Below, in pieces: positions 1 to 2,232 of a stretch of DNA of 2,232 nucleotides. The first letter of the stretch is position 1, and each line of letters begins with the position of its first letter. The stretch is from the NCBI RefSeq assembly GCF_003334335.1, contig NZ_QOWQ01000092.1; one strand, given 5' to 3'. The stretch is from Escherichia coli. GTDB taxonomy: Bacteria; Pseudomonadota; Gammaproteobacteria; Enterobacterales; Enterobacteriaceae. A program made the translations under genes and the position numbers. The notes under the pieces were generated by a model. That model saw only the letters and a program-made list of their open reading frames with translations. It was not told where the DNA came from and did not search any database.

Positions 1-2232
1 GGAGGCTCACACCTTTGACTCTGTGAAATTTATTCTGACCACCGCTCTCGCCGGTGGTCTGCTGGCTGTTCCCCTGCAGATCAAAAACATTCAGCAGAAC
101 GGGATCACACCAGAAGATATCAGCAAGGAAATTAACGGGTATTACTGCTGTTTTTATACTGCCTTTTTCCTTATGGCGTGTTCTGCATGCGCACCATTGA
201 TCGCGTTACAGTACGATATTTCACCGTCACTGATGTGGTGGGGCGGGTTGTTGTACTGGCTGGCTGCATTAGTGACGCTGCTATGGGCGGCCAGCCAAAT
301 CCAGGCGCTGAAAAAACTGACCTGTGCCATCAGCCAGACACTGGAAGAACAACCGGTGCTCAACAGTAAATCGTGGCTGACCAGTTTGCAAAACGATTAC
401 AGCCTTCCTGACTCACTGACGGAGCGCATCTGGCTGACGCTCATTTCTCAACGGATTTCCCGGGGAGAGCTGAGGGAATTTGAACTGGCAGACGGAAACT
501 GGTTACTGAACAATGCCTGGTATGAAAGAAACATGGCAGGGTTTAACGAACAGTTGAAAGAGAACCTGTCATTCACACCTGATGAACTGAAAACGCTCTT
601 CCGGAACCGCCTGAATTTATCACCGGAAGCGAATGACGATTTTCTCGATCGTTGCCTGGACGGCGGTGACTGGTATCCCTTTTCAGAAGGTCGCCGTTTT
701 GTATCATTCCATCACGTGGATGAGCTTCGTATCTGTGCCTCCTGCGGGCTGACAGAAGTACATCATGCCCCGGAAAATCATAAGCCGGATCCGGAATGGT
801 ACTGCTCCTCTCTTTGTCGCGAAACAGAAACACTGTGTCAGGAAATTTATGAACGCCCTTACAACAGCTTTATTTCCGATGCAACGGCGAATGGTCTGAT
901 TCTCATGAAACTGCCGGAAACCTGGAGTACAAATGAGAAAATGTTTGCTTCCGGAGGGCAGGGACATGGGTTTGCCGCTGAACGGGGAAACCATATTGTC
1001 GACAGAGTCCGTCTGAAAAACGCACGGATCCTCGGTGATAATAATGCCAGAAATGGAGCAGACAGACTGGTCAGCGGAACAGAAATCCAGACGAAATATT
1101 GTTCAACTGCAGCCCGTAGCGTCGGTGCGGCATTCGACGGACAAAACGGACAGTATCGTTACATGGGAAATAATGGCCCCATGCAACTGGAAGTCCCCCG
1201 TGATCAGTATGCCGGCGCTGTTGAAACCATGAGGAATAAGATCCGCGAAGGTAAAGTACCCGGTGTAACCGATCCCGCAGAAGCATCCCGGCTGATTCGT
1301 CGGGGACATCTGACTTATACTCAGGCCCGTAATATCACCCGGTTCGGGACCATCGAATCGGTCACTTATGATATTGCCGAGGGTTCGGTTGTCAGTCTGG
1401 CGGCCGGAGGGATCAGTTTTGCCCTGACGGCATCGGTCTTCTGGCTCAGCACCGGCGATCGCGATGCTGCCCTGCAGACAGCTGCTGTCCAGGCAGGAAA
1501 AACCTTCACCCGCACACTGGCTGTCTACGTCACAACCCAGCAACTCCACCGGCTCAGTGTTGTTCAGGGTATGCTGAAGCACATTGATTTTTCGACTGCC
1601 AGCCCGACTGTCCGACTGGCTCTTCAGAAGGGGACCGGTGCAGGAAATATCAGTGCCCTGAACAAAGTGATGAAGGGTACGCTGGTGACATCTCTGGCAC
1701 TGGTAGCTGTCACAACCGGCCCTGACATGATCAAAATGTTGCGGGGACGGATCTCCGGTACGCAGTTCATCAGGAATCTTGCCGTGGCATCTTCCGGTGT
1801 GGCAGGTGGTGCTGTCGGGTCAGTGGCGGGCGGAATACTGTTCAGTCCACTGGGACCATTTGGTGCACTGACAGGGCGTGTGGTTGGCGGTGTTCTGGGG
1901 GGAATGATTGCCTCCGCTGTATCAGGAAAAATTGCCGGAGCGCTGGTTGAAGAAGATCGCGTCAAAATTCTGGCAATGATTCAGGAGCAGGTGACATGGC
2001 TTGCCGGCAGTTTCCTGCTGACCGGACATGAGATTGAAAATCTGAACGAGAATCTGGCCCGTGTTATCGATCAGAATGCTCTGGAGATCATTTTCGCCGC
2101 CGGTATACAACAACGGGCCGCGACCAATATGTTAATCAAACCACTGGTGGTCAGTATCATCAGGCAACGCCCCGTCATGGAATATGATGCATCCCATCTC
2201 GGCAATATGGTTAACCGACTGGAAGAAGCATT
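1..2232 (+). CDS. Large uncharacterized membrane protein, internal fragment (partial at 3' end, probably also at 5' end); codon phase begins at nt 2
   Basis: Manual translation of the frame starting at nt 2 gives 743 consecutive sense codons (nt 2-2230) with no stop; the other two + frames hit stops within the first 26 nt (TGA at 16-18 and 24-26). Leu is mostly CTG and the translation has protein-like features (hydrophobic helix-length segments, Cys4 motif, GxxxG repeats). Translation begins EAHTFDSVKFILTTALAGGLLAVPLQI... and ends ...HLGNMVNRLEEA. Product identity is unassigned. Confidence 0.85.
29..292 (+). other. N-terminal cluster of three predicted transmembrane helices (aa 10-27, 46-69, 77-97 of the window translation)
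   Basis: Three uncharged hydrophobic stretches of 18-24 residues: FILTTALAGGLLAVPLQI, GYYCCFYTAFFLMACSACAPLIAL, LMWWGGLLYWLAALVTLLWAA, separated by short polar loops; the third is followed by the positive residues KK (aa 104-105). Judged by eye, no predictor run. Confidence 0.6.
734..817 (+). other. Putative zinc-ribbon-like Cys4 motif (C245-x2-C248 ... C268-x3-C272) with flanking His residues
   Basis: Translation reads HHVDELRICASCGLTEVHHAPENHKPDPEWYCSSLCRETETLC: two Cys pairs 19 residues apart, His at aa 237, 238, 254, 255, 260, and a fifth Cys at aa 279. The spacing matches a small zinc-ribbon knuckle pair; metal binding is inferred, not shown. Confidence 0.45.
1388..1447 (+). other. Internal hydrophobic, Gly/Ala-rich segment (aa 463-482), possible transmembrane or membrane-inserting helix
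   Basis: VVSLAAGGISFALTASVFWL is uncharged and helix-length, followed by the polar STGDRD. A shorter hydrophobic stretch LVTSLALVAVTTG follows at aa 561-573 (nt 1682-1720). Confidence 0.4.
1778..1948 (+). other. Glycine-zipper (tandem GxxxG) hydrophobic region, aa 593-649; candidate membrane hairpin or oligomerisation module
   Basis: LAVASSGVAGGAVGSVAGGILFSPLGPFGALTGRVVGGVLGGMIASAVSGKIAGALV contains G602-x3-G606-x3-G610, G621-x3-G625-x3-G629-x3-G633, G630-x3-G634 and G642-x3-G646. About 55 residues carry only two charged side chains (R626, K643), with a Pro-Leu-Gly-Pro turn-like centre at aa 616-619. Confidence 0.55.

Follow-up and report, generated by a model that had tools for sequence, protein, structure and literature searches.

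Full-length YeeR of Escherichia coli carries a glycine-rich stretch of the glycine-zipper type that is real and strongly conserved, and that most likely forms a membrane-embedded helical hairpin. Our best reading, held tentatively and at a little under even confidence, is that this hairpin anchors and oligomerises a nuclease-like module of the protein. The stretch lies in a DNA of 2,232 nucleotides from contig NZ_QOWQ01000092.1 (hereafter the window), in which frame +2 is the sole frame open throughout, with 743 codons (2..2230, + strand). The window DNA is 100% identical to a chromosomal gene of many E. coli genomes, annotated as "hypothetical protein" and located between agn43 and irmA. The full coding sequence (CDS) in strain 1428, of 838 amino acids (aa), is flanked by these same genes in a CP4-44-like island, which identifies the gene of the window as full-length yeeR. 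Window residue n is full-length residue n+88, and the interval marked as glycine zipper in the initial annotation of the window (window residues 593-649, positions 1778-1948) therefore corresponds to full-length residues 681-737. Full-length numbering is used below unless stated otherwise.

A glycine zipper conserved position by position

The interval encodes LAVASSGVAGGAVGSVAGGILFSPLGPFGALTGRVVGGVLGGMIASAVSGKIAGALV, a stretch of 57 residues with 15 glycines, eight GxxxG pairs and two charged residues (R626 and K643, window numbering). The initial annotation had described tandem GxxxG repeats in a near-uncharged stretch around a PLGP centre. The translation bears out every glycine it listed (window residues 602/606/610, 621/625/629/633 and 642/646), the PLGP centre (616-619) and the low charge (2/57), and adds two further GxxxG pairs (599/603 and 630/634). 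The word "tandem" holds for the residue pattern and fails for the DNA, where Tandem Repeats Finder reports no repeat in 1700-2000 that could be the source of the glycine pattern. Two in-register runs, S686/G690/G694/G698 and G709/G713/G717/G721, fit the sequence definition of a transmembrane (TM) glycine zipper, (G/A/S)xxxGxxxG or GxxxGxxx(G/S/T), and the glycines of zipper helix A span a 100-degree arc.

The composition of the stretch (26% Gly, 54% G/A/S) could suggest a compositional accident, that is, a low-complexity patch rich in Gly, Ala and Val with no specific role. Shuffle tests and the lack of a DNA repeat speak against this. In shuffles of the whole protein (n=2000) the best window held on average 2.1 GxxxG pairs and at most six, compared with the eight observed. 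Shuffles within the segment that kept its 15 glycines gave a mean of 3.5 pairs and reached eight or more at P=0.003, so the i,i+4 register is more than a product of glycine richness.

Conservation was assessed on homologues from a word-indexed search (more than 400, mostly about 820-850 aa and from many Proteobacteria), on an alignment of 92 YeeR orthologues with 29-68% identity, and on a distant set of 107 cluster representatives. Four glycines (G694, G698, G713 and G717) are Gly in 92/92 orthologues and four more (G690, G691, G718 and G721) in at least 84/92 (at least 91%), while G699, G706, P707, G709 and G722 are kept in 89-95%. Within the turn, the YeeR clade keeps G706 in 86/92, P707 in 87/92 and G709 in 84/92. 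No charge occurs across 681-726 in the 92 orthologues except R/K at position 714. Among the 107 distant representatives the zipper glycines are still 80-97% Gly and the hairpin is still uncharged. This position-specific conservation, in more than 90 orthologues and more than 100 distant representatives, effectively refutes a chance origin of the pattern and makes an accident of composition exceedingly improbable. The third glycine run of the initial annotation (window G642/G646, full-length G730/G734) is not conserved, being Gly in 7/92 and 37/92, and homologues often carry charged residues at 730-737; this region is probably the helix exit. In the basic flank ahead of the zipper, R669, G670, S673, Q676 and N680 are at least 90% conserved, and D740 in the acidic cluster behind it is about 95-100% conserved.

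Position 714 is an observation of its own. R714 lies in zipper helix B (window 1865-1870) beside the invariant G713 and is 87% K/R in the YeeR clade only; in distant relatives the position is mostly Gly, giving a GG pair.

Predicted structure of the hairpin

An AlphaFold2 model was built on the 92-sequence alignment, with a mean predicted local distance difference test score (pLDDT) of 78.6. From the N-terminus it contains a helical membrane domain, a Cys4 ribbon, an alpha/beta domain at about 405-535, long helices, the zipper helices and a helical C-terminal domain. In the zipper region it has a helix at 674-701, a break at the PLGP turn and a helix at 707-729. The prediction thus gives two helices, and not the loop or beta structure that the initial annotation had named as contrary evidence, but at very low confidence, with a pLDDT of 33-46 for the hairpin as against 70-95 for the rest of the protein. 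A low pLDDT without confident intramolecular packing would be expected if the segment packs against lipid or other subunits. The Kyte-Doolittle means of the zipper helices (1.35-1.53) are comparable to those of the N-terminal helices, and marginal hydrophobicity is expected for glycine-rich helices. Judging from loop charges, everything after residue 187 would be cytoplasmic, and the basic flank before the hairpin would fit a topology with both hairpin ends in the cytoplasm.

The zipper as part of a mobile module

Most of the invariant polar residues of YeeR fall not in the zipper but in 405-535, where G411, E415, N418, D422, D442, R443, Q451, K453, Y454, E485, P487, D489 and Q490 are invariant and H410 is nearly so. 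The model of residues 400-545 has the alpha-beta-beta-beta-alpha-beta core of the PD-(D/E)xK fold, with E415 on helix 1, D442 just before strand 2 (443-445) and Q451-T-K453 on strand 3 (448-452). Sequence and model together give a putative PD-(D/E)xK motif, in which E415, D442 and Q451-x-K453 would occupy the canonical positions, with Gln (Q451) in place of the second acid. We regard this domain as nuclease-like by its predicted fold. Lower-ranked entries in its list of matches are HamA, Can2 and Tox-REase-5.

Precomputed matches on the near-identical representative P0001 (99% identity, 100% coverage) place YeeR in the Pfam family PF27347 (YeeR_C), and nearly all homologues carry the same match. 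A profile of residues 395-838 was searched against 1.84 billion cluster representatives and matched 2474 clusters (50% identity) at E<=1e-3, 730 of them at E<=1e-30. The match nearly always spans profile positions about 13-428, whatever the location of the module, which may be C-terminal (as in YeeR), N-terminal in proteins of 900-1100 aa, or nearly the entire protein in those of 480-520 aa. Regions fused to it in relatives include Sel1/TPR repeats, an FGE-sulfatase domain, zinc ribbons and a beta-helix, and the AlphaFold DB relatives also include proteins named DnaK, TerD and SEL1-like. In 67 of the 121 representatives with a complete module, strongly hydrophobic segments are confined to the module. 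Because the matches span the whole profile and the hydrophobic segments are often found in the module only, the zipper is a hallmark of a mobile unit of about 430 aa and not a stand-alone domain. The proposal of the initial annotation that the zipper is the best candidate for the functional module of the protein is accordingly too strong: it is one element of the unit of about 430 aa, whose invariant polar residues lie mostly in 400-545. The order of elements in YeeR_C is a nuclease-like PD-(D/E)xK-fold domain, two hydrophobic helices, the basic flank, the zipper hairpin, the acidic cluster and a helical C-terminal domain (Table 1).

Table 1. Features of YeeR in the window, with positions in the DNA and in the full-length protein.
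Feature	Window position	Strand	Full-length residues	Remarks
Partial CDS	2..2230	+	89-831	YeeR, 838 aa, WP_001315618.1
Last three hydrophobic helices of the N-terminal membrane domain	23..295	+	~96-113, 134-157, 165-186	AlphaFold2 pLDDT 84-95, hydrophobicity scans
Two winged-helix-like alpha/beta units	356..727	+	207-330	
Cys4 zinc-ribbon-like motif	734..838	+	C333, C336, C356, C360	Invariant columns in 31 and 92 homologues
PD-(D/E)xK nuclease-like fold (predicted)	950..1342	+	~405-535	Most conserved domain
Hydrophobic helix inside the module	1391..1453	+	~552-572	Hydrophobicity; equivalent hydrophobic in many distant relatives
Second hydrophobic helix inside the module	1673..1717	+	~646-660	AlphaFold2 helix 638-659; hydrophobic in relatives
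Basic flank R-G-R-I-S-x-x-Q-F-x-K/R-N	1742..1777	+	669-680	Directly before the zipper; conserved
Zipper helix A	1778..1846	+	681-703	G690/G691, G694, G698/G699 on one face; AlphaFold2, conservation
Turn P-L-G-P-F-G	1847..1864	+	704-709	Break between helices at 702-706 (AlphaFold2); conservation
Zipper helix B	1865..1924	+	710-729	G713, G717/G718, G721/G722; AlphaFold2, conservation
End of the annotated interval	1925..1948	+	730-737	G730/G734 poorly kept
Acidic E-E/D-D cluster, then C-terminal helical domain	1949..2230	+	738-831	AlphaFold2 helices, pLDDT 64-86

Some further features of the protein and its gene were recorded. C367, beside the Cys4 motif, is nearly invariant in the 31 and 92 homologues. 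A Q-Q-L-H/x-R motif (window 1538-1552, residues 601-605), located in the helical stretch that separates the nuclease-like domain from the zipper, is nearly invariant; all 92 orthologues keep its Q602, and the distant set shows at least 90% conservation in the corresponding Gln column. The C-terminal tail is -AA in 58/92 YeeR orthologues (MAA 13, LAA 10, AAA 9, IAA 9, VAA 6) and -VA in 17/92. It is -LPA in the E. coli copy (residues 832-838, L001:14231-14251, downstream of the window end), and -AA endings are scarcer in distant relatives (10/82). The -AA and -VA tails resemble non-polar, ssrA-like C-terminal signals recognised by ClpXP, FtsH or Prc. On the minus strand an open reading frame (ORF) of 113 aa (1624-1965), rich in Pro, Thr and Ala, overlaps the zipper; its composition is that expected from the reverse complement of the GGN/GCN (Gly/Ala) codons, and no sign was found that this ORF is a gene.

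Resemblance to known families

The initial annotation had likened the stretch to known glycine-zipper modules, and comparison with hidden Markov models (HMM) of glycine-zipper and 2-TM families brought no Pfam family to significance. YeeR has no match to the Pfam Gly-zipper clan (PF05433, PF13488, PF13441, PF13436) at E<=10, and the Lactococcus homologue matches none of the clan families either. NCBI annotation names this homologue "glycine zipper family protein". JGI labels some YeeR orthologues "YcfJ". The likeness to this clan (Rick_17kDa_Anti/Gly-zipper_2TM PF05433, Gly-zipper_Omp PF13488 and Gly-zipper_YMGG PF13441, including SlyB/PCP and YcfJ) is one of layout, with two short uncharged GxxxG helices, a tight turn and a length of about 45-50 residues. 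In profile terms it is weak, with YMGG, Omp and 2TM at E 0.02-0.2 in one relative and none significant. Moreover, the clan proteins are small outer-membrane lipoproteins, whereas the YeeR hairpin is internal to a predicted inner-membrane protein of 838 aa and fused to the nuclease-like domain. Overall, relatives of YeeR match Gly-zipper_YMGG, Gly-zipper_Omp, Gly-zipper 2TM, DUF1269, TraT and Bacteriocin_IIc at E 0.003-0.2.

The sole Pfam-A match of YeeR itself is C19orf12 (PF20721; E=0.024, model positions 47-139 of 163), covering the zipper and the following helices. C19orf12, of the eukaryotic Nazo family, has been described as a transmembrane glycine-zipper protein (PMC4470416). Homology was rejected because 1/31 orthologues match at E<=0.1, with E=0.024-0.037 in two members and 1.5 in a third; nothing points to common descent, and the two proteins differ in cellular context. 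By score, the zipper comes closest to phage tape-measure proteins, namely the PHROGs family phrog_167 (E=0.0011 over YeeR 567-732) and, with the module profile against the PDB, 9ki1 (E=0.011 over the hairpin). The module profile also reached an Rhs1 TM region and SlyB (7ojf, E=1.5). Both YeeR and the tape-measure proteins have Gly/Ala-rich paired helices, and tape-measure glycine-zipper segments probably enter the inner membrane. The likeness is marginal and largely compositional. YeeR shows nothing else typical of a tape-measure protein, and phage genomes almost entirely lack the module. Taken together, these weak resemblances of the zipper region all point to glycine-zipper membrane segments, and they establish no named zipper family.

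Outside the zipper families, the PADLOC profile PDC-M09B matches YeeR (E=5e-6) and its relative P0226 (E=5e-13) over both the nuclease-like and the zipper parts. PDC-M09 is a multi-gene phage-defence candidate, of which YeeR is only a partial and distant match to protein B. Neither the E. coli neighbours, IrmA and the GTPase, nor the neighbours at three other loci gave a PDC-M09A-like partner, and no published function for PDC-M09 was found in the literature search. NCBIfam gave no family for YeeR and five relatives. PDB searches with the protein, the module profile and the domain profile gave further matches, all marginal and regarded as chance: the Hsp70 lid (E about 1), a chemoreceptor ligand-binding domain (E=0.11) and L7Ae (E=0.01, over a short "EVPxD...GKV" stretch). 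Matches of four relatives to the C-terminal part of LeoB/LeoBC of the Eleos system (E 5e-5 to 2.5e-4) were too weak and too zipper-centred to be taken as homology.

In a possible, though clearly less probable, alternative, along the lines of the initial annotation, the hairpin is itself the effector. On activation the glycine faces of several hairpins would assemble into a pore or channel that depolarises the inner membrane, leading to toxicity or abortive infection, while sensing or regulation would fall to the nuclease-like and fused domains. Kim et al. reportedly described glycine zippers, in PNAS in 2005, as typical of homo-oligomeric channel-lining helices, which favours this idea. The conservation of the glycines exceeds what a plain anchor needs, many relatives without another hydrophobic segment could stay soluble until triggered, and there are the weak matches to Bacteriocin_IIc and to tape-measure zippers. 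The defence-like context at some loci points in the same direction, and the -AA and -VA tails could, speculatively, be a degradation tag that keeps a dangerous protein low. However, colicin-type and other pore-forming toxin domains gave no recognisable fold or HMM match, the most conserved polar residues lie in the nuclease-like domain and not in the zipper, and a near-full-length copy is carried by 1801/5426 complete E. coli genomes, co-transcribed with agn43 and without a recognised immunity gene (PMC4807369).

Genomic context of yeeR and its homologues

A DNA match to the window is present in 2582 of the 5426 complete E. coli genomes, and it covers at least 80% of the window in about a third of all genomes (the 1801 mentioned above). 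The CP4-44-like island of strain 1428 also holds a GTPase gene, yeeS, yeeT, cbeA/cbtA and an antirestriction gene. The GTPase gene, upstream of agn43 (L001:7255-8127), weakly matches GTPase parts of Eleos LeoBC (E=1.6e-8) and LeoA (8e-5); this likeness and that of some YeeR_C relatives to LeoB are probably generic GTPase and zipper similarity. The genes agn43, yeeR and irmA can form one transcript, which is repressed by OxyR, and YeeR is called uncharacterised (PMC4807369, PMC9431211, PMC6480617); co-transcription with the phase-variable adhesin gene agn43 holds for some strains (PMC4807369, PMC9431211). No functional study of YeeR turned up in the literature search, and a reported mention of yeeR in a Staphylococcus aureus cell-death paper is absent from its main text.

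The copy in K-12 MG1655 (b2001, L012:3780-5312) has 510 aa; it matches the full-length protein (L001:11738-14254) exactly over residues 1-507 and then stops. This truncated remnant is missing the end of the nuclease-like domain together with the zipper and the C-terminal domain, and K-12 phenotypes are therefore uninformative on the intact protein. In some strains yeeR is interrupted by an insertion sequence (IS) of the IS600 family (record NZ_CP050498.1), which agrees with the report that IS disruption of the flu-yeeR region is frequent (PMC9431211).

Homologues in other bacteria have no conserved partner gene common to the Pseudomonas, Dyella, Stenotrophomonas and Herbaspirillum loci, and the upstream genes at two distant loci, considered as a shared partner, are unrelated (BLASTP E=0.18). 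The genes lie on mobile or variable DNA. The Pseudomonas homologue adjoins a RES-Xre pair and that of Stenotrophomonas is flanked by transposase genes. The Herbaspirillum homologue (L006:8001-10466) lies directly downstream of ZacA (E=3e-82) and ZacB (E=1e-100; L006:4296-7375) of the Azaca defence system; the island that holds them carries a phage-type integrase. On the conjugative Lactococcus plasmid pNCDO184A (L010:5940-9780), a WYL-domain gene directly precedes the gene of a 665-aa YeeR_C-module protein, which is followed by a 285-aa gene of unknown function on the same strand, and an Abi family gene lies about 6 kb away. WYL-domain proteins often regulate defence operons. One Oscillospirales phage carries a homologue in a prophage accessory position, between endolysin and invertase. 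Anecdotally, such mobile and defence surroundings fit a role in conflict or defence.

A proposed membrane-held nuclease-like module

In the reading that we favour, the interval would encode a helix-PLGP-helix hairpin, with a GxxxGxxxG face along each helix of about 22 uncharged residues. The hairpin would dip into or span the inner membrane with both ends in the cytoplasm, and its small-residue faces would let helices pack very closely, both inside the hairpin and, probably, from one subunit to the next. Its job would be to hold and oligomerise the module at the membrane, with activity and sensing provided by the nuclease-like domain and the variable fused domains. Membrane insertion, topology, oligomerisation and a role in conflict with mobile DNA or phages are features that we infer.

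Several observations weigh against this reading. The hairpin pLDDT below 50 is also compatible with disorder. The zipper helices are not predicted to insert alone by the Hessa translocon scale, which gives them about +4.5 kcal/mol or worse; most N-terminal TM helices score -2.3 to +1.3 kcal/mol. A second anchor is not obviously needed, given the multi-helix membrane domain already present at the N-terminus of YeeR. The module is rare on plasmids overall and rare in phage genomes (1/50,697 records and six IMG/VR loci, for which reason a phage origin was rejected), and the defence context comes from a handful of loci and is not a statistic.

The low pLDDT and the unfavourable insertion energy could also mean that the stretch lies outside the membrane, either as a tightly packed, buried hairpin in a soluble helical domain or as a flexible Gly/Ala-rich linker between helical regions. 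In keeping with this, residues 573-645 hold 8 K/R and 3 D/E, which goes against a simple 4-TM reading of the hydrophobic helices of the module, and no TM glycine-zipper family gives a significant match. On the other hand, 46 consecutive near-chargeless positions across a very diverse superfamily would be unusual for a soluble linker, and a linker is not expected to keep invariant glycines at fixed spacing or a turn of fixed length. The stretch is also predicted to be helical, with a significant i,i+4 register. A soluble hairpin or linker is therefore unlikely, and less likely than either a membrane anchor or a pore.

Membrane tethering of a nuclease has a possible working analogy in SNIPE, a membrane-bound anti-phage nuclease in which tethering prevents self-cleavage and which has been linked to phage tape-measure proteins (10.1101/2025.11.03.685801). 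In both proteins a nuclease-type domain would be held at the inner membrane within the same polypeptide. By analogy, SNIPE offers a precedent that inner-membrane tethering of a nuclease can underlie defence, but YeeR shares none of its parts. SNIPE consists of one TM helix, DUF4041 and a GIY-YIG nuclease, whereas YeeR has a multi-helix N-terminal domain, winged helices, a zinc ribbon, the PD-(D/E)xK-like domain and the glycine zipper, with no homology between the two. A bolder proposal, which we consider decidedly doubtful, is that modules for immunity or exclusion, each made of a single protein, form a large class so far unrecognised, with YeeR_C as its core. In these, a nuclease of PD-(D/E)xK type, held in the inner membrane by the zipper, would have a hairpin that co-assembles with the zippers of incoming phage tape-measure proteins or injection channels, or that switches to a depolarising pore on activation, and the variable fused domains would be the sensors. 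If true, co-assembly of the hairpin would place the nuclease at the site of DNA entry, a SNIPE-like logic with unrelated parts, and the sensors would be the multi-helix membrane domain with winged helices and zinc ribbon, Sel1/TPR, TerD, Hsp70-like and FGE-sulfatase regions.

The gene yeeR, the family PF27347 and the motif type are already catalogued, and one homologue is already annotated as "glycine zipper family protein". No earlier description was found of the zipper within a shuffled unit of about 430 aa, of the PD-(D/E)xK-like domain in that unit, or of the K-12 copy as lacking the zipper and part of the domain, though one may exist. The zipper alone is an ordinary motif type, and its value is in the module that it marks. 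This module of about 430 aa is shuffled over thousands of protein clusters on mobile DNA, and it suggests the hypotheses of a membrane-tethered nuclease or a pore-forming effector, together with specific residues to mutate.

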